DNA of 28,077 nt, taken from positions 1 through 28,077 of IMG/VR virus record IMGVR_UViG_3300037067_017524; one strand, written 5' to 3'. This stretch comes from a virus. A program made the position numbers and the translations under genes. Below are positions 267 to 15,222 of the stretch, piece after piece; the first letter of the stretch is position 1, and each line of letters opens with the position of its first letter. The notes beneath the pieces were generated by a model. That model had not been told where the DNA came from. It saw nothing but the letters and a program-made list of their open reading frames with translations, and did not search any database.

Positions 267-1121
267 ATGATACACAAAGAAACAAAATCACAAAGAAGAA
301 AATCAACAAAACTCGACATTTCACTTGATTGTAAAATGTGTGGAGTTATAGTGAAAAGTAATGCTGGCTTAGCAAGTCATTTAAGATGGGAACATGATGA
401 ATCATATGAGTCATATATTTTGAGATGTTATAATATAGATATAATTAAGTTAGAAGAAGAATATCAATCATATCGAATTAATAATAAGGAAAAAATTAAT
501 AAAGAAATAACTAGGGGGTTAAGAAAACATGCTGAATCATTAAAAGGAAAAACTAAAAAAGAAATTTTAGGAGAAGATAGATATCAAAAATTTCGTGAAT
601 CAATGAAGGGTGTTTTTTCATTAGAATGGTTTATAAAAAAATATGGTGAAGAAGAAGGTCGTATAAAATATCAAGAACGAAGTGTTAATGTATCTAAAAA
701 ATCACATTTTAAGATATATAACCAAACAAATAAAAATAATTGGTCAAATATATCCCAAGAATTATTTCAAAAAATTTATGATATAATTGGTAACAAGTTC
801 AATAACATTTATTTTGCTAAATTGAATCATGAATATTCATGTGGCATTCAGAGCCATAATTTTGATTTTGTTGTACTTGATAATAAAAAAGTAATAGAAT
901 TTCACGGAGATAGATTTCATGCAAATCCCGAATTGTATAAAGAAGATGATATTCCACTGAAATTTTTGAATAAAACATCAAAAGAAATATGGAATGAAGA
1001 CAGAGAAAAATACGATAAAATTAAAAATAAAGGATTTGAGTTAAAGGTCGTTTGGGAAAAAGATTATTTAAAAAACAAAAATGAAACCGTTTTAGATTGT
1101 ATTAAATTTTTATTATCTTAA
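267..1121 (+). CDS. Homing-endonuclease-like protein: N-terminal C2H2-type zinc finger, tandem basic repeats, C-terminal PD-(D/E)XK (DUF559/Vsr-like) nuclease domain
   Basis: CKMCGVIVKSNAGLASHLRWEH fits C-x2-C-x12-H-x4-H. Repeated K/R-rich modules follow. The C-terminus FDFVVLDNKKVIEFHGDRFH...ELKVVWEKDY is paralogous to the nuclease core of ORF 11427-13280 (EFNGVYWH...IHIYEDDW). Confidence 0.6.
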   Translation: MIHKETKSQRRKSTKLDISLDCKMCGVIVKSNAGLASHLRWEHDESYESYILRCYNIDIIKLEEEYQSYRINNKEKINKEITRGLRKHAESLKGKTKKEILGEDRYQKFRESMKGVFSLEWFIKKYGEEEGRIKYQERSVNVSKKSHFKIYNQTNKNNWSNISQELFQKIYDIIGNKFNNIYFAKLNHEYSCGIQSHNFDFVVLDNKKVIEFHGDRFHANPELYKEDDIPLKFLNKTSKEIWNEDREKYDKIKNKGFELKVVWEKDYLKNKNETVLDCIKFLLS

Positions 1122-1137
1122 TATAATATATACAAAC

Positions 1138-1914
1138 ATGATTAGAAAGTATAATTTATTTTTAAACGAAAATACTTATAAGGACGAATTTCTTCGTCTT
1201 TATAATCTCGCACCTCAAACACTAAAACAAATAATTGAAGAGACAAAACAAATTCAACAAAGCCTCGACTGGCATATCGAGGGGGTTGTTTATATACATA
1301 TTCGTTTAGTCACGAACAGATTAGCTAATAATTATCACGATAAAAATCTAAATTTAGCCGGATTCTTCCACGACCTTGGAAAGATTTATGTTACAATACC
1401 AAATGGTAGGGGTGGTTGGTCAGCACATGGCCACGAAGAAAAATCTATATTAATTGTGGATGAATACAAAGATTGGATAAAAGAACAAGGCGGAACACTT
1501 GACATAGTTACGTATATTGTTGAAAATCATATGAAATACAAATACATAGATGAAATGAGATTTCAAGAACAAATAAGATTTATGGACGATGTTTATTTTC
1601 CTTATGTTCAAAAGTTTTCTACAGCTGATATAGGTGGAACAGATTTAAATTGTACTCCAATTGATAATCATGAAGATGTAGTACAAAAGATAGAAGATTT
1701 TAAAAATAAAGAAGAAGAAAACAAAATAATTAAAAAGAAATTTAATGCAAATATGATTATGGATAAATATCCAGATTTAAGAGCTGAAAAACTTGGGAAA
1801 GCATTATCTTTATTTAAACAAAATTATGATAATTTTCGAGACTTTATATTAAATAGTACAACAAAAGATATATTAAAGGACTTTGATGAGTTCATGTTAA
1901 CTCATAAAAATTAA
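1138..1914 (+). CDS. HD-domain metal-dependent phosphohydrolase
   Basis: His...HD...H...D pattern: HIRLVTNRL ... GFFHDLGKIYV ... WSAHGHEEKS ... D. Confidence 0.6.
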   Translation: MIRKYNLFLNENTYKDEFLRLYNLAPQTLKQIIEETKQIQQSLDWHIEGVVYIHIRLVTNRLANNYHDKNLNLAGFFHDLGKIYVTIPNGRGGWSAHGHEEKSILIVDEYKDWIKEQGGTLDIVTYIVENHMKYKYIDEMRFQEQIRFMDDVYFPYVQKFSTADIGGTDLNCTPIDNHEDVVQKIEDFKNKEEENKIIKKKFNANMIMDKYPDLRAEKLGKALSLFKQNYDNFRDFILNSTTKDILKDFDEFMLTHKN

Positions 1915-1986: not shown

Positions 1987-2115
1987 ATGTACAAATCTTG
2001 TTCGATTTGCCACGAAGAGATGATCTATATAAAAACATCTGATGGTGGTTATTGGAAATGTAAACATTGTTCAAACATAGAAATAGATGATTCTACCAAT
2101 AGTAACATACGGTAA
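1987..2115 (+). CDS. Possible small zinc-ribbon protein (42 aa), overlapping the 5' end of def in another frame
   Basis: Manual translation gives MYKSCSICHEEMIYIKTSDGGYWKCKHCSNIEIDDSTNSNIR*. It has two C-x2-C pairs about 20 aa apart. It is short and overlaps def by 29 nt, so it is speculative. Confidence 0.25.
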   Translation: MYKSCSICHEEMIYIKTSDGGYWKCKHCSNIEIDDSTNSNIR

Positions 2116-2617
2116 TCCTACTTTAAGGAAACCGGGACATCAAATTAAGGAGAAAAGTGCTGAACTCGATGAACTTATTGATGATATGTTTCAAACTTTA
2201 CATACCGCAGATGGTGTGGGTTTGACTGCTCAACAAGTGGATAAAATACTATCTTTATTTGTAATTGATTATAATAATGAAGGAAATGAAAATCTGAAAG
2301 AAGTTTTTATTAATCCCGAAATTACCGAATACTCACAAGAAGAAGAATATTTTATAGAATCTTGTTTATCCATTCCGAGACTTAAAGAGGAAGTTAAAAG
2401 ACCTAAATGGATAAAAATAAAATATTTGGATAGAGAATTTAACGAAAAAGAACTTGTCTATGAAGGTCTTTTAGCCAGAATAATTCAACACGAATATGAC
2501 CATTCTAAAGGTATTTTGTATATAGATCATTTACCATCATTAAAGAAAAGACTTATATCAAGTAAACTGCAACAGATATTAAAAAAGAAGTTTGCAGTTC
2601 CATATAGAGTAAAATAA
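2087..2617 (+). CDS. def: Peptide deformylase
   Basis: All three PDF motifs are present: GVGLTAQQV (motif I, G-GLAA-Q), ESCLSIP (motif II, EGCLS), QHEYDHSKG (motif III, QHE-DH). The N-terminus MILPIVTYGNPTLRK is typical of Bacteroidota PDFs. Confidence 0.88.
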   Translation: MILPIVTYGNPTLRKPGHQIKEKSAELDELIDDMFQTLHTADGVGLTAQQVDKILSLFVIDYNNEGNENLKEVFINPEITEYSQEEEYFIESCLSIPRLKEEVKRPKWIKIKYLDREFNEKELVYEGLLARIIQHEYDHSKGILYIDHLPSLKKRLISSKLQQILKKKFAVPYRVK

Positions 2618-2649
2618 TTTGTTTATTTCATTTATTATTTGTATTTTTG
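2618..2649 (+). promoter_or_regulatory. Candidate Bacteroidota sigmaA-type promoter (TTTG-N20-TATTTTTG) inside a 33-nt repeated intergenic element
   Basis: TTTG at 2618-2621 and TAnnTTTG at 2642-2649. It lies 22 nt upstream of the ATG at 2671. The same element recurs at 2944-2975. Confidence 0.45.
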
Positions 2650-2670
2650 TAATCTTAAATATTAAGAAAT

Positions 2671-2943
2671 ATGAAAACAATTAGATATTTTATCGACAAA
2701 TTGTTAAAGAGAGATTTAAAAAAACAAAAAGAATTCATCAATGAACGAATGAAAGAATATGCCATGAATATTGATGAATTTTCTATCGGTCAAGTAGTTA
2801 CTCATTCGGATGGTAGAAAGTGTTTGATAACAAACAAAGCCACCAATAGTATTGAGGTAAAATTGACACGAAAAACAAAACAAGGTATTGATTGTAAACA
2901 GTGGTATGACATGAGATTATTTAACAATACTTTTAAGAAATAA
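2671..2943 (+). CDS. Hypothetical protein (90 aa, basic)
   Basis: ORF flanked by two copies of the promoter-like repeat. No recognisable domain. Confidence 0.5.
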   Translation: MKTIRYFIDKLLKRDLKKQKEFINERMKEYAMNIDEFSIGQVVTHSDGRKCLITNKATNSIEVKLTRKTKQGIDCKQWYDMRLFNNTFKK

Positions 2944-2975
2944 TTTGGTTATTTCATTTATTATTTATATCTTTG
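2944..2975 (+). promoter_or_regulatory. Candidate Bacteroidota sigmaA-type promoter (TTTG-N20-TATCTTTG), second copy of the repeated element
   Basis: TTTG at 2944-2947 and TAnnTTTG at 2968-2975. It shares the 18-mer ttatttcatttattattt with 2618-2649. It lies 24 nt upstream of the ATG at 2999. Confidence 0.45.
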
Positions 2976-2998
2976 TGTTCTAATTAAAACAATAAATT

Positions 2999-3811
2999 AT
3001 GATAGAATTCATTCCGACAACTTGTTACGAATGTGGTGAACCTCTCAAAGTAACCACTGGTAAAAACGGCAAATATAAACTGATGTGTGTCAATACAGAT
3101 TGTTCTGGTATCGCAGTCAAAAAATTCCAAAAAGGTATGCTAGCTTTTGAAATTTCAGGAATTGGTCCAGCAACCTTCAAAAGTCTCTACAATGCAGGTA
3201 TTCGTGACATCGTGGGATTACTCACTATTACACCAGAAGAACTTGTTGCAAGTGGTGAGTTCAAGGATGGTAGAACTCTTGAAAAAATTATGGATTCCAT
3301 CTCATCTATTAAAAATATCAGATTGAGTGCTCTCATTGAATCACTCCAATTTGACAATGTAGGAAATACCATCAGCAAAGAACTTGAAAAATATATCTGT
3401 AATCTTCCTTATAATTTTGCAGGTATTGAATATTCTATCAGAGAAAAAATTGAAGATAAAAATTCTGATATGATGCTAAAAATATTTGAAGTAATCGATA
3501 ATCTTCAGACAATACCTAATATACAATTAATAACACCCATATCAAATAATATACAAACTAATACAGAAAATGTTATGAAAACAAGAATCATGGAAATGAC
3601 TGGTTCACCAAAAGAATTTGGTTTTGATACCAAAAAAGATTTTGTTACAGCTGTTGCTCCTTATGGAATAGTTGCAGGAACACTCAACAAAGATTGTTCT
3701 TTCTTAGTTACTGATGATTTATCATCCACAACTTCTAAGATGGAAAAGGCTACTAAACTTGGTGTACAAATTGTCACCTACGGTCAGTTAATTGAAATGT
3801 TAAATAAATAA
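2999..3811 (+). CDS. Stand-alone NAD-dependent DNA ligase C-terminal module (Cys4 Zn finger + HhH array + BRCT). No adenylation or OB domains
   Basis: CYECGEPLKV...YKLMCVNTDCSG matches the LigA Zn finger (CPVCGS...RCTGGLIC). GIGPATFKSLYNAGIRDIVGLLTITPEEL...LEKIMDSI aligns with the LigA HhH region. MTGSPKEFGFDTKKDFVTAVAPYGIVAGTLNKDCSFLVTDD...KLGVQIVTYGQLIEML matches the LigA BRCT domain (LTGSL...[21 protein letters not shown]...ELGIEVIDEAEMLRLL). Confidence 0.75.
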   Translation: MIEFIPTTCYECGEPLKVTTGKNGKYKLMCVNTDCSGIAVKKFQKGMLAFEISGIGPATFKSLYNAGIRDIVGLLTITPEELVASGEFKDGRTLEKIMDSISSIKNIRLSALIESLQFDNVGNTISKELEKYICNLPYNFAGIEYSIREKIEDKNSDMMLKIFEVIDNLQTIPNIQLITPISNNIQTNTENVMKTRIMEMTGSPKEFGFDTKKDFVTAVAPYGIVAGTLNKDCSFLVTDDLSSTTSKMEKATKLGVQIVTYGQLIEMLNK

Positions 3812-3815
3812 GAAT

Positions 3816-4274
3816 ATGAAAAAACTAATTATTTTATTACTTGTTATTATCGGATTGTGGTCATGTAAGAAAGAAACTCCGTGTACTATTACCGATGATA
3901 TCGATCAATTGAAACAGACTAAAAGTGAATATCAGAATGAAATAAGGAATTTTGTTGAAATCAGAGGAAAAATAGTTCATGAAATTGATTCACTCACTGC
4001 CGTTTTAAAAATAATTGATATTTATAAATCTGGCAGAATACCACAATATATTCTTAAAATACATCTAAAACAAAGTCATATAACACTCGATTTAGGCAAA
4101 GTAATAAAAGATCATATGAACACAGTTGATTTTGAACTTCCAGTTGATAAATTATTTTATGACCAAGTTCAAGTTGGTACTTCAATCGTTGATGATTTCA
4201 GAATGGGTTCATTCATACTAAGTGGTAGTATAGGTAGTTGGGATATGACAGTATCGGGAAAAGAAATACGATAA
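3816..4274 (+). CDS. Putative lipoprotein
   Basis: N-terminus MKKLIILLLVIIGLWSC is a signal peptide with a lipobox-like LWSC. Confidence 0.55.
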   Translation: MKKLIILLLVIIGLWSCKKETPCTITDDIDQLKQTKSEYQNEIRNFVEIRGKIVHEIDSLTAVLKIIDIYKSGRIPQYILKIHLKQSHITLDLGKVIKDHMNTVDFELPVDKLFYDQVQVGTSIVDDFRMGSFILSGSIGSWDMTVSGKEIR

Positions 4275-5085: not shown

Positions 5086-5598
5086 ATGATAAATCCCTTT
5101 TATAAACCATCATTGTTAAAATGGATTAAGAAAATGTTTCTTCATGCCGAATCTAAGGAATGGTATGAAACATATTTTTTATTTGATTTACACGGTGTTA
5201 TATCTAGACCAGATTATCGTAAAACTATAAAAGAGATAGATTATTATCCATATGCTAAAGAAACATTACAGTATATTTCAATAAACAGACCAGATGTAAT
5301 TATGATTCTTTTTACTTCATCTTATCCAGATGAAATAAAAAAATATATGGACACATTCGAGAGGGATGGAATAAAATTTAAATATATCAATGAAAATCCA
5401 GAAATTTCTGATGCAACTGGATGTTTTGGATATTATTATCAGAAACCGTATTTCAACGTCCTCTTCGATGACAAAGCGGGTTTCGATTCTTTAAAGGATT
5501 GGAAACCGATATATAACTATTTCCGAAAAACAAAATATAGACCCGACCCAAATTGGACATTTAAGAAGAAAGAATCCTATCATAAAATCCAAAGTTGA
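5086..5598 (+). CDS. HAD-superfamily (NT5C-like 5'-deoxynucleotidase-like) protein with a variant motif I
   Basis: FLFDLHGVI aligns with HAD motif I (DxDGV), but D-L-H replaces D-x-D. NVLFDDKAG resembles NT5C motif IV (LIDDRP). Confidence 0.4.
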   Translation: MINPFYKPSLLKWIKKMFLHAESKEWYETYFLFDLHGVISRPDYRKTIKEIDYYPYAKETLQYISINRPDVIMILFTSSYPDEIKKYMDTFERDGIKFKYINENPEISDATGCFGYYYQKPYFNVLFDDKAGFDSLKDWKPIYNYFRKTKYRPDPNWTFKKKESYHKIQS

Positions 5599-5660: not shown

Positions 5661-7151
5661 ATGGATATATTAAAAACATTTATCAGCTTGACCGATTATA
5701 CATATGGATTTGGTGAAGAGGCTGAATTGCTACCCAAGCTACCCAAGGACTTAAAAGAAGATTCTCAGGGAAATTATTATATGGAAATCGGTGAAACTGA
5801 ATCAATGTTCTGTTGTCACTTAGATACTGCTGCATGGGAAAAGGAAAAAGTTACTCATGATGTGTTTACAACTAAAAAGGGAGATACTGGTGTTGGTACA
5901 AGTGGTGATACTATCCTAGGTGCAGATGATAAAGCTGGTGTTGTCATTTTAATGAATATGATAGAGCATAATATACCCGGACTTTATTATTTTTTCATCG
6001 GTGAAGAAAGTGGTGGAGTGGGCTCAAAGGGTATCGTAAGAAGAGAACCAAAAAAATTCGAAAAATATAAAAGATGTATTGCATTTGACCGTAGAGATTA
6101 TGGATCTATTATAACAAAACAAATGGGTCGAGCTTGTTGTTCAGAAAAATTTGCTGATGCTTTAATTGCTCAATTTGATGCAGCTAACATGCCACACAAA
6201 CAAGATCCCTTTGGTGTTTATACTGACTCTGCTAATTTTGTTGATATTATATCAGAATGTACTAACCTATCAGTAGGATATTTCAATGAACATAGCATAA
6301 GTGAAGTTATAAATATAACATATTTGGAAGAATTATGTGAAGCAACATTGAAAGTAAAATGGGAAGAATTACCTGCAGTTCGTGAGATAAAATCATTAGA
6401 CTCACCTAACCCAGTGAGAGGACAGAAAAGAGCAGGAGATTTGGATGACGATACTTTAGAAGAAATATTTTTTGATGTCGATGATTTATTAGAAGAAATA
6501 ATTCATATGTATTGTTTTAATTTTGATAATTTCATGCCGGAAAAAGAAATGATTTATTTAGATTATTATAATGATTATAGAAAGTTATCTGTTTATATTC
6601 ATGAAAATGGTTCAATAACAATAGGTAAAAGTAAATTTGAAACTTACGAACATTTAGTTACTGAATTGAAAAAATACCATAATTTTAATTTAGAAAAAAT
6701 ACAATCTAAACGAAAAAAATCAGAAGAAGAGGAAGAAGTGCCTAGTAATGCAGATGAATATCATGATTGGATTACTAAAAGTTCTCAAAAAGATGAAGAA
6801 CCACCTTGGTGGACTCAAGAAAACGATGATGAATTCAATGATGATGACGATATTAATATAGATTATTTTGAAATAACTAATAATGTTCAATATAAAGATT
6901 TAGGTAAGTCCTTTACTAAAGGTATGGACATTCAAGATTTTATTTTTGAAGTACTGAGTGTGGCTTACGAGAAAGGAACTAAATACATACTACCAGAAGA
7001 AATGATTAAAATACTCAATTCCAAAAATAAAACTAAGGAATCATTCATAATGTGGTTAAAAGATAGAGGTAATAATCCAGATAAAACCTATGGGTTATCT
7101 TGGAATCAAGGAAAAAGAGTATTTCAAATAGACGTTGACGATTTACAATGA
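5661..7151 (+). CDS. M20/M42-type metallopeptidase-like protein with an acidic C-terminal extension
   Basis: FCCHLDTAAW (HxD metal ligand), ILGADDKAGVVILM (GADDKAG signature), IGEESGGVGSKG (Glu-Glu catalytic/metal pair). Residues about 250-400 are strongly acidic (DE-rich). Confidence 0.6.
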   Translation: MDILKTFISLTDYTYGFGEEAELLPKLPKDLKEDSQGNYYMEIGETESMFCCHLDTAAWEKEKVTHDVFTTKKGDTGVGTSGDTILGADDKAGVVILMNMIEHNIPGLYYFFIGEESGGVGSKGIVRREPKKFEKYKRCIAFDRRDYGSIITKQMGRACCSEKFADALIAQFDAANMPHKQDPFGVYTDSANFVDIISECTNLSVGYFNEHSISEVINITYLEELCEATLKVKWEELPAVREIKSLDSPNPVRGQKRAGDLDDDTLEEIFFDVDDLLEEIIHMYCFNFDNFMPEKEMIYLDYYNDYRKLSVYIHENGSITIGKSKFETYEHLVTELKKYHNFNLEKIQSKRKKSEEEEEVPSNADEYHDWITKSSQKDEEPPWWTQENDDEFNDDDDINIDYFEITNNVQYKDLGKSFTKGMDIQDFIFEVLSVAYEKGTKYILPEEMIKILNSKNKTKESFIMWLKDRGNNPDKTYGLSWNQGKRVFQIDVDDLQ

Positions 7152-11426: not shown

Positions 11427-13280
11427 ATGAAAGAAATATTATTTGAAACCGATCCATCTGGTAAATATTCGAAATCAGATTATTTAAAAAAGAATCATAT
11501 TGATTTATATAATGATATCATTATATATGCAGAGAAAAATAATATAGCAGATATACTATTCAAAGAAAAAGTTTATTGTTACAAATATAATATACTTCCA
11601 CCAATTTGTAAAAATCCAATATGTAATAATAAAGTTCAATTTAGAAATTCAACAATCGGATATGAAGAATATTGTTCTAATAAATGTATTGGGACAGATC
11701 CAATAATTCAGAAACGAAAAGAGGAGAAATCATTAAAAAAATTTGGAACAAAAACACCTGCTGAATCACAGATTATTAAAGAGAAAATGATTCAAACAAA
11801 TAATAAAAAATATGGAAGTAATTCTCCATTACAGAATAATGAAATACATAAAAAAAGTCAACAAACATTAATGAATAATTATGGTGTTGATAGCCCTCTG
11901 AAATCTAAAGAAATACAATCAAAACGATTAAGTCATTTTGATATTGATAAGTGGAGAATAAAATTTGAAGCAACAATGATGAGTAAGTATGGTGTTAAAA
12001 ATGCTCTACAGAATAAAGAAATAATGAATAAAACTAGAGAGACTAATATTAAAAGATATAATTGTGAATATCCAAGTCAGAATAAAGAAATAATTAAGAA
12101 AATATTAAGTAGTAGAAATGAAAAAGATTGGCAAGACAATTTAGAAAAAAATATGTTAAATTTATATGGTGTTAAAAATTCAATGGGTGTAAAATCTTTT
12201 AGAGATAAAATATCGATAACACAAAGAAATAAAGAAAAAAAGATAAATCCAAATATAATAGATATAGATTTAGAAAATAAACAATATATTATGAGATGTG
12301 ATTGTGGTCAAGATCATGATTTTTCAATATTATTTTCACTATATAAAAGTCGAAAATTTTTTGCCTCAAATTATTGTACTGTTTGCTTTCCACCACATAA
12401 AAACAGCATATCTCAATTGGAAACAGAATTATTTAATTTTATAGAAGATAATTATAAAGATGAAATAATATTAAATAAAAAATCTATTATACCTCCATAT
12501 GAATTAGATATTTATTTACCCGAAATAAAAATAGCTTTTGAATTTAATGGAGTTTATTGGCATAATGAATTAAATAAACCCGAAAATTATCATAAAATGA
12601 AAAGTGATTTGTGTGATAAAAAAAATATTCAACTTATACATATATACGAAGATGATTGGGTTTATAAGAAAGACATAGTTAAATCTATTATCTTAAATAA
12701 AATCGGTAAAACACTAGAAAAAATATATGCCAGAAAAACCACAATTGAAGAAATTGATAATAAACAATTAAGAATTTTCTTAAGCGAGAATCATTTACAG
12801 GGATATGTAAATTCTAAAATTAATATAGGATTATCTTATAATAATGAATTAATATCCGTGATGACGTTTGGTAAAAAAAGAAAAAGCATGAATTCTAATT
12901 CAGCAGAAAATGAATACGAAATGTTAAGATTTTGTAATAAGTTAAATATTAATGTAGTAGGTGGAGCATCCAAATTATTTAATTATTTTATTAAAAAATA
13001 TAATCCTAAAGAGATTATAAGTTATGCCGACAGAAGCCATTCTAATGGAAATTTATATAAACAATTAAAATTTAATTATATAGGCATAACTGAACCCAAT
13101 TATTATTATGTTGTGGATGATATTCGTAAACATCGTTTTGGATTTAGAAAAGACGTATTGATTAAACAAGGTTTTGATAAGGATAAATCAGAACATGATA
13201 TAATGTTAGAAAGAAAAATTTATCGAATTTATAACTCAGGTAATTACAAATTTATATATAATAATAAAAATATTAAATAA
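11427..13280 (+). CDS. Free-standing homing-endonuclease-like protein (Hef/DUF559-type PD-(D/E)XK) with an N-terminal Cys cluster, six tandem ~25-35-aa repeats and a C-terminal extension of unknown function
   Basis: Repeats of the form (K/N)YG-x3-(P/A)-x-Q-x-KEI-x2-K-x3-T appear six times. The nuclease core ELDIYLPEIKIAFEFNGVYWHNE...IQLIHIYEDDW is paralogous to ORF 267-1121. The gene lies between the sheath and tube genes, a classic homing-endonuclease location. Confidence 0.7.
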   Translation: MKEILFETDPSGKYSKSDYLKKNHIDLYNDIIIYAEKNNIADILFKEKVYCYKYNILPPICKNPICNNKVQFRNSTIGYEEYCSNKCIGTDPIIQKRKEEKSLKKFGTKTPAESQIIKEKMIQTNNKKYGSNSPLQNNEIHKKSQQTLMNNYGVDSPLKSKEIQSKRLSHFDIDKWRIKFEATMMSKYGVKNALQNKEIMNKTRETNIKRYNCEYPSQNKEIIKKILSSRNEKDWQDNLEKNMLNLYGVKNSMGVKSFRDKISITQRNKEKKINPNIIDIDLENKQYIMRCDCGQDHDFSILFSLYKSRKFFASNYCTVCFPPHKNSISQLETELFNFIEDNYKDEIILNKKSIIPPYELDIYLPEIKIAFEFNGVYWHNELNKPENYHKMKSDLCDKKNIQLIHIYEDDWVYKKDIVKSIILNKIGKTLEKIYARKTTIEEIDNKQLRIFLSENHLQGYVNSKINIGLSYNNELISVMTFGKKRKSMNSNSAENEYEMLRFCNKLNINVVGGASKLFNYFIKKYNPKEIISYADRSHSNGNLYKQLKFNYIGITEPNYYYVVDDIRKHRFGFRKDVLIKQGFDKDKSEHDIMLERKIYRIYNSGNYKFIYNNKNIK

Positions 13281-15190: not shown

Positions 15191-15222
15191 TTTGGTGATT
15201 TAAGAAAATATTTTTAATTTTG
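15191..15222 (+). promoter_or_regulatory. Candidate Bacteroidota-type promoter (TTTG-N20-TAATTTTG) carrying a palindromic aaaatatttt core
   Basis: TTTG at 15191-15194 and TAnnTTTG at 15215-15222. The 17-mer atttaagaaaatatttt (15198-15214) is repeated at 16033-16049 upstream of the MVP gene. Confidence 0.4.

Follow-up and report, generated by a model that had tools for sequence, protein, structure and literature searches.

A stand-alone zinc finger-HhH-BRCT protein of a large AT-rich phage as a candidate B subunit of a dispersed NAD+-dependent DNA ligase

In the structure of the E. coli NAD+-dependent DNA ligase (LigA) with nicked DNA-adenylate (2OWO), the nucleotidyltransferase (NTase), OB, and helix-hairpin-helix (HhH) domains encircle the duplex, and the zinc finger (Zn) bridges OB and HhH. 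N-terminal fragments of LigA self-adenylylate but have little affinity for DNA and fail to seal nicks; DNA binding is a property of C-terminal Zn-HhH-BRCT fragments. Enzymes of the T5 type carry the catalytic and the DNA-binding functions on two proteins (PDB 9HU3); the T5 genes have been named ligA and ligB (PMC3632103), and nick sealing has been ascribed to the A and B subunits (PMC4319617). The T5-like Aeromonas phage AhSzq-1 has a 321-amino-acid (aa) NTase+OB gene and, ~180 nucleotides (nt) further on, a 259-aa gene with a zinc finger and BRCT that is annotated as 'NAD-dependent DNA ligase subunit B'. PDB entries 9HU3/9I5I are titled 'PR1 phage heterodimeric DNA ligase' and were determined on nicked DNA, and PHROGs holds separate families of A size (phrog_3359) and B size (phrog_3498). 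Here we analyzed the virus record IMGVR_UViG_3300037067_017524 of IMG/VR, hereafter the window, which is the whole public contig (28,077 bp), so the remaining genome cannot be read from it. An open reading frame (ORF) at 2999..3811 encodes the DNA-binding part of such a ligase. Since split ligases of T5-like phages are known and one has a solved structure, a stand-alone B module is itself no surprise; an earlier reading of the window without database searches (the sequence-only reading) had not recognized this architecture in T5 ligA/ligB, PHROG 3498, and PDB 9HU3. We think that the window protein is probably the B subunit of a two-gene NAD+-dependent ligase whose A gene is unlinked.

The module gene and its domains are as follows.
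2999..3811, plus strand: stand-alone LigA C-terminal module gene, 270 aa plus stop, ATG start
3023..3103, plus strand: Cys4 zinc finger, residues 9-35 (C9, C12, C30, C35)
3107..3508, plus strand: helix-hairpin-helix array, residues about 37-170, colinear with the LigA HhH positions
3584..3808, plus strand: BRCT domain, residues about 196-270, after a low-confidence linker at 183-193

Residues 5-261 of the ORF matched positions 391-649 of the 652-position NCBIfam profile TIGR00575 (LigA) with an E value of 4e-21. The score was 75 bits against a whole-protein cut-off of 444.45, which was not reached, and the match began at profile position 391; therefore the ORF corresponds to the C-terminal part of LigA alone. 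In PHROGs, the ORF matched positions 391-654 of 656 in PHROG 3869 (full-length phage LigA, E 2e-34) and positions 5-254 of 256 in PHROG 3498 (of 'subunit B' size, E 2e-21). Compared directly, the ORF aligned with residues 403-652 of T. filiformis LigA, and its family profile aligned with residues 404-668 of E. coli LigA (2owo_A) and residues 403-660 of the T. filiformis protein. The Pfam signals were low: BRCT scored 21.7 bits at residues 223-267, barely over the cut-off of 21.3, and HHH_5 scored a weak 20.5 bits at residues 51-84, under its cut-off of 27. In an alignment of 23 homologues, the four cysteines (C9, C12, C30, and C35), which align with those of the LigA zinc finger, were invariant, as were the HhH glycines G54 and G56 (GIGP) and G122 and the BRCT motifs E199-T201-G202-P204 and T238-D239...K247-M248-K250. 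An AlphaFold2 model built from this alignment had a mean predicted local distance difference test (pLDDT) score of 86.9, with beta hairpins at residues 15-20 and 26-30 in the zinc finger, an entirely helical HhH region (pLDDT 88-96), and the linker at residues 183-193 as its sole disordered part. When the model was compared with the PDB by Foldseek, the top matches were LigA chains and 9hu3_B (E 1e-10), and BRCT domains were also found. The colinear alignments, the invariant cysteines, the model, and the fold search thus place a Cys4 zinc finger, an HhH array, and a BRCT domain in LigA order. The sequence-only reading had assigned just these domains, with a start at the zinc finger, and had made the assignment depend on matches to LigA profiles; the matches to TIGR00575 and PHROG 3869, opening at position 391, bear it out. 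Taken together, these results indicate that the ORF is the DNA-gripping tail of a bacterial-type NAD-dependent DNA ligase.

The window protein resembles the B subunit of the T5-type heterodimer in most respects. Both are cut at the OB|zinc-finger boundary and share their size and the Zn-HhH-BRCT order, and the match is end to end with 9hu3_B as with PHROG 3498: residues 3-263 of the family profile aligned with residues 3-243 of 9hu3_B ('DNA ligase subunit B', 248 aa; E 3e-6). The ORF thus has the B-subunit traits of a separate frame that opens at the zinc finger, of Zn-HhH-BRCT as sole content, and of whole-length similarity. It differs in the place of its partner: the A and B genes of T5-type phages are adjacent (~150 nt apart), whereas here the 28-kb contig, read in six frames, has no A gene, nor do the loci of the clade within 10 kb of the module. 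The phages differ as well, the window belonging to a huge AT-rich myovirus with Bacteroidota-type promoters and the T5-type phages to another host group and phage type. The module family is closest to full-length LigAs from other uncultured phages, and T5-type B subunits are ~25% identical to the window protein, which suggests from sequence comparison that the fission in this family arose independently of that in T5-type phages. Compared with bacterial LigA (E. coli 2OWO, T. filiformis 1DGS), the module is colinear with residues 404-668 of the E. coli enzyme and is without domains Ia, NTase, and OB, all three of which LigA has.

The missing domains were sought throughout the window. The whole window was translated in six frames, and all stop-to-stop segments of 20 aa or more were compared with three N-half profiles; the result was noise (best E 0.18). 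A Pfam scan found no OB fold (PF03120) in the ORF, which opens at the zinc finger, and domain Ia and the NTase domain with its KxDG lysine were likewise absent from the ORF and gave no signal in any window frame. Directly upstream lie a 90-aa ORF and a complete peptide deformylase gene. The catalytic domain is therefore not attached to the module, as the sequence-only reading had held, and the frameshift that would join it to such a domain was not found in any of the six frames.

The stand-alone form is conserved. A search of 5.8 billion proteins recovered at least 57 protein clusters with lengths of 263-283 aa and identities of 47-83%, all opening at the zinc finger, plus one fragment, from contigs of up to 616,614 bp. 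Where the locus context was accessible, the clade shared the gene order HD, peptide deformylase, small ORF, module, 170-aa protein, peptidase-like protein, UVR-motif protein, and tail sheath. The gene boundary was identical in independent assemblies from JGI, ENA, Logan, and NCBI. The ratio of nonsynonymous to synonymous substitution rates (dN/dS) between the module and seven homologues was 0.09-0.26, a rough value given that synonymous sites were near saturation, and the module is under purifying selection. Complete phage genomes gave no nucleotide match, and their best protein matches were at most 33% identical. A profile search of 1.84 billion cluster representatives returned 7,386 hits; the best 150 of them included ~40 complete stand-alone proteins of 240-320 aa and several 'OB + Zn-HhH-BRCT' proteins of 350-420 aa.

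A family of catalytic halves was found on other contigs. Seeded from one locus (L099; loci are cited by our L numbers), this orphan A family consists of stand-alone proteins of about 380-435 aa, with ~70 clusters among the 120 matches listed and 35-40 further JGI loci. It covers TIGR00575 positions 2-387 and E. coli LigA residues 14-394 and exactly complements the window protein. In this family, neither the K123-x-D-G lysine nor any other catalytic motif varies. The contigs of the orphan A halves are AT-rich and reach 614 kb, and no C-terminal module lies within 10 kb of any of these halves. Both halves were found together on one contig, IMGVR_UViG_3300037067_002793 (43,725 bp), where an orphan A half at ~10.8-12.1 kb and a 262-aa Zn-HhH module at 36,060-36,845 lie 24 kb apart on the same strand. 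This AT-rich phage contig falls in the same wider group as the window; its stand-alone halves are unlinked, and the gene neighborhood of its module differs from that in the window. That module (L321) shares only 28% identity with the window protein, and its BRCT domain is degenerate, with the signature motifs lost.

Several further features are common to the A-half and module loci. The tail-sheath orthologue on the A-half contig IMGVR_UViG_3300033146_001759 (L146) is 48-51% identical to that of the window, compared with 62-76% within the module clade; therefore the A-half phages represent sister lineages in the same virus group. The promoter variant TAnnTTTG-N2-5-TCTAA occurred 7 times in 182 kb of B loci and 6 times in 248 kb of A loci (~0.3 per 10 kb), and it immediately precedes the B gene in the window, L010, L012, and L305/L306 and the A gene in L252, L253, and L260. 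Two JGI samples (Ga0208375 and Ga0172381) each yielded an A contig and a B contig, and by tetranucleotide distance the A locus nearest to the B contig of Ga0208375 was the A contig of the same sample. Full-length LigAs that scored high with one orphan profile tended to score high with the other (Spearman 0.90), a correlation that carries little weight because general divergence would give it as well. On the A-half contig L146, 3.5 kb upstream of the orphan A half, is a cytidylyltransferase-like gene (5950..6531), a candidate nicotinamide mononucleotide (NMN) adenylyltransferase, which recalls the NAD-synthesis genes of some T5-like phages.

Two further ways of joining the halves were considered and rejected. 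The 112.5-kb A-half contig and the 25.6-kb module contig of Ga0208375 (sample 3300025121) were tried as neighbors; an exact-end search found nothing that joined them and the 112.5-kb contig was without the tail-tube marker, so adjacency was rejected on the side that could be tested. Trans-splicing by a split intein was rejected on reading the sequences, because the module opens at the zinc finger and the A halves end ~25 aa past OB, which leaves no room for intein halves.

Loci related to the module in IMG/VR point to how the two halves may have come apart. Most encode a full-length LigA of 620-715 aa; in a dozen, the gene is broken at the OB|Zn boundary and its N half lies 0.7-1.1 kb upstream. 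In eight of these loci (L025, L028, L033, L039, L095, L106, L116, and L123), an endonuclease ORF of the GIY-YIG or DUF7487 type lies exactly in the OB|Zn gap; in LR756500.1 (L002, 352254-361024), a DUF7487 ORF cuts LigA inside the NTase domain instead. The interrupted genes yield stand-alone Zn-HhH-BRCT ORFs of 262-282 aa that open at the zinc finger, like that of the window, and belong to the same LigA lineage (26-33% identity). They differ from it in having the A half 0.7-1.1 kb upstream, whereas the window module has none nearby. The window contains two genes of this kind:
267..1121: endonuclease gene
11427..13280, plus strand: 617-aa protein with DUF7487 (homing-endonuclease-like repeats) and a C-terminal Mom-like domain, between the tail sheath and tail tube genes

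At the element equivalent to 11427..13280, the JGI assembly of a relative breaks. Mobile elements also act around both kinds of ligase locus: TnpB (IS605 OrfB) genes near an orphan N half (L148, 6697..7893) and near a module (L012, 13729..14919) are 57% identical. A gene of 397-399 aa that N-half and module loci have in common was considered as a sign of synteny and rejected, since it is this TnpB, a mobile gene, and so gives no evidence of synteny.

These observations are consistent with the following scheme. An ancestral LigA gene would have been cut at the OB|zinc-finger boundary, where many related phages hold a homing-endonuclease gene, and the two halves would later have become unlinked in the clade of the window. 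The B protein would contribute the zinc finger, the HhH array, and BRCT, with the HhH array gripping the minor groove of the nicked duplex, and the separately encoded A protein (Ia-NTase-OB, with the KxDG lysine) would act with it in trans, taking AMP from NAD+ and sealing the nick. A and B together would close a clamp around the DNA, as do intact LigA and the T5-type heterodimer. We infer from this that the genome of the window phage encodes its own A half, that the A and B proteins associate, and that their complex seals nicks. In uncultured large phages, the OB|zinc-finger hinge of LigA has been a repeated site of cutting, often with a homing-endonuclease gene exactly in the gap, and in at least one lineage the halves have moved apart by tens of kilobases, each under a promoter of its own. 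The ligase would thus be a natural example of selfish elements turning a multidomain enzyme into a two-component system, and the divergent A/B pairs would offer material for studying clamp assembly in trans.

Several results weigh against a dispersed two-gene ligase. None of the clade loci (L005, L007, L010, L012, and L304-L309) has an A half within 10 kb of the module. Of the search for an NTase/OB ligase gene that the sequence-only reading had proposed, the window and these flanks were covered for a LigA N half, and none was found there. IMG/VR scans with four N-half peptide patterns returned no match on the three clade contigs; on the 94-kb contig, this means no A half within 72 kb upstream or 22 kb downstream of the module. 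Two larger clade contigs, of 616 kb (616,614 bp, Ga0675942_0000067) and 157 kb, were covered to 10 kb from the gene, and the 616-kb contig was not returned by the metagenome A-half scan, its sample probably lying outside that collection. No contig with both a window-type module and an A half was found. Module contigs and A-half contigs did not coincide in the cluster member lists, larger contigs included, and a scan of genome collections gave two mis-binned phage contigs and nothing further. Sample 3300020048 has two window-type modules, yet none of the 80 loci returned was an orphan A contig from it. L339 (IMGVR_UViG_3300035208_009193, 675,678 bp), whose tail-tube protein is 58% identical to that of the window, was never returned when either ligase half was scanned for, which means that not every member of the wider group has the ligase. 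To judge from its sequence, L321 may not be an orthologue of the window module, and the shared promoter and composition are circumstantial.

Such results would also fit a clade that had lost, or never kept, the catalytic half and a protein that worked alone or with host proteins, which we regard as the main, though less likely, alternative. It might then mark or protect nicks or ends, compete with host LigA at nicks or BRCT contacts, or complement or recruit a different catalytic partner (host LigA or an ATP-dependent ligase, for example). Besides the A halves missing from the clade loci, from the 94-kb contig, and from sample 3300020048, the neighbors of the module fit this alternative, being genes of host takeover and structure (peptide deformylase, HD, ankyrin, and sheath) and not of replication, as does BRCT, which is strongly conserved here and decayed in L321, the one module proven to share a contig with an A half. 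It accounts less well for the orphan A halves of related phages, which complement the module exactly and have samples, composition, and a promoter variant in common with it, for a sister-lineage contig that bears both halves, and for the fact that all well-understood stand-alone modules of this kind are ligase subunits. That no A half was detected in this clade reflects limited access to its contigs and not a search of whole genomes. That the clade is without any ligase catalytic domain and the protein is an autonomous factor, be it a nick or end sensor guarding phage DNA, a decoy for host LigA, or a clamp that captures host ligase in trans, strikes us as rather unlikely; if true, the protein would represent a new type of nick-binding or anti-ligase factor in phages. 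Among the three roles named in the sequence-only reading, half of a split ligase is therefore the one we favor, and nick binding and dominant-negative competition are neither supported nor excluded by the data.

The endonuclease genes of the window, together with the LigA genes of relatives that such elements have cut, could also point to a decaying remnant, the functionless 3' end left after a homing endonuclease or a rearrangement had destroyed a LigA gene. We consider this very improbable: the 57 clusters hold the same start, length, and open frame, the Cys4, the HhH glycines, and the BRCT motifs are invariant, the module has its own conserved promoter, and its model folds confidently. An assembly or frameshift artefact that conceals an upstream catalytic domain is less credible still and can practically be set aside, given the six frames without N-half signal, the 90-aa ORF and complete peptide deformylase gene in the upstream position, and a boundary that is the same in all four sources of assemblies. 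With 57 clusters of the same start, a conserved neighborhood, and dN/dS of 0.09-0.26, both readings were rejected, and the view that this is not a simple gene fragment stands. We thus return to the two-gene ligase with an unlinked A gene as the reading that we prefer.

The module gene has its own promoter-like element and lies among the following features.
1138..1914, plus strand: HD-domain protein, directly upstream of the peptide deformylase gene
2087..2617, plus strand: peptide deformylase, complete gene (E 1e-49)
2612-2655, plus strand: sibling promoter copy, 89% identical to 2938-2981
2671..2943, plus strand: unrelated 90-aa ORF between the peptide deformylase gene and the module, no family match
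2938..2981, plus strand: promoter-like element of the module gene, 44 nt, repeat family D3
3816..4274, plus strand: co-oriented 152-aa ORF that starts 4 nt past the module stop, no family match
5086..5598, plus strand: 170-aa protein that adjoins the module clade-wide (56-88% identity)

The element at 2938-2981 has a -33 TTTG at 2944-2947 and a -7 TATCTTTG at 2968-2975, followed by TTCTAA, and it fits the Bacteroidota promoter form TTTG-N19-21-TAnnTTTG (match at 2944-2975); no sigma-70 fit of the element stands out. In the window, TTTG-N17-23-TAnnTTTG was found 8 times compared with 2.9 expected (e.g., 2944-2975, 2618-2649, and 15191-15222). The rare variant TAnnTTTG-N2-5-TCTAA (TATCTTTGTAYTCTAA) occurs once in the window, at the module promoter. 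The promoter-like repeat described by the sequence-only reading was thus confirmed as a 44-nt copy of Bacteroidota form, and so was the clean stop with a closely spaced ORF behind it. Promoters of this type suggest, on motif grounds, a host in Bacteroidota or a related group. One relative is mis-binned as Ignavibacteria.

The 152-aa ORF is probably co-transcribed with the module gene, and its N-terminus may be lipoprotein-like, as judged from reading MKKLIILLLVIIGLWSC alone. It was considered as a partner of the module and rejected because it is kept in the closest relative alone (L305, 55% identity). The 90-aa ORF has no homologue in the other clade loci. Across the clade, the pair of HD and peptide deformylase genes precedes the ligase module. 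The sole match of the 170-aa protein was a PHROG annotated as 'phosphoheptose isomerase', and its N-terminus (FDLHGV) is HAD-motif-like.

Other genes of the window were also recorded. An 827-aa protein (16137..18620, plus strand) matched the Major Vault Protein shoulder, the Vault_3 repeat, and SPFH/Band_7 (E 9e-27, 2e-10, and 1e-5, respectively); it has no PHROG family and is unusual in a phage structural region. Two tandem paralogous ORFs (21958..23079 and 23086..24183, plus strand) are linked by a 133-nt direct repeat, and the first, the one of the two that was scanned, matched DUF2827 (E 5e-121). On the minus strand, 18954..20350 holds an ankyrin-repeat protein and a stand-alone response-regulator receiver domain, and in relatives HisKA/HATPase sensor kinases are encoded nearby.

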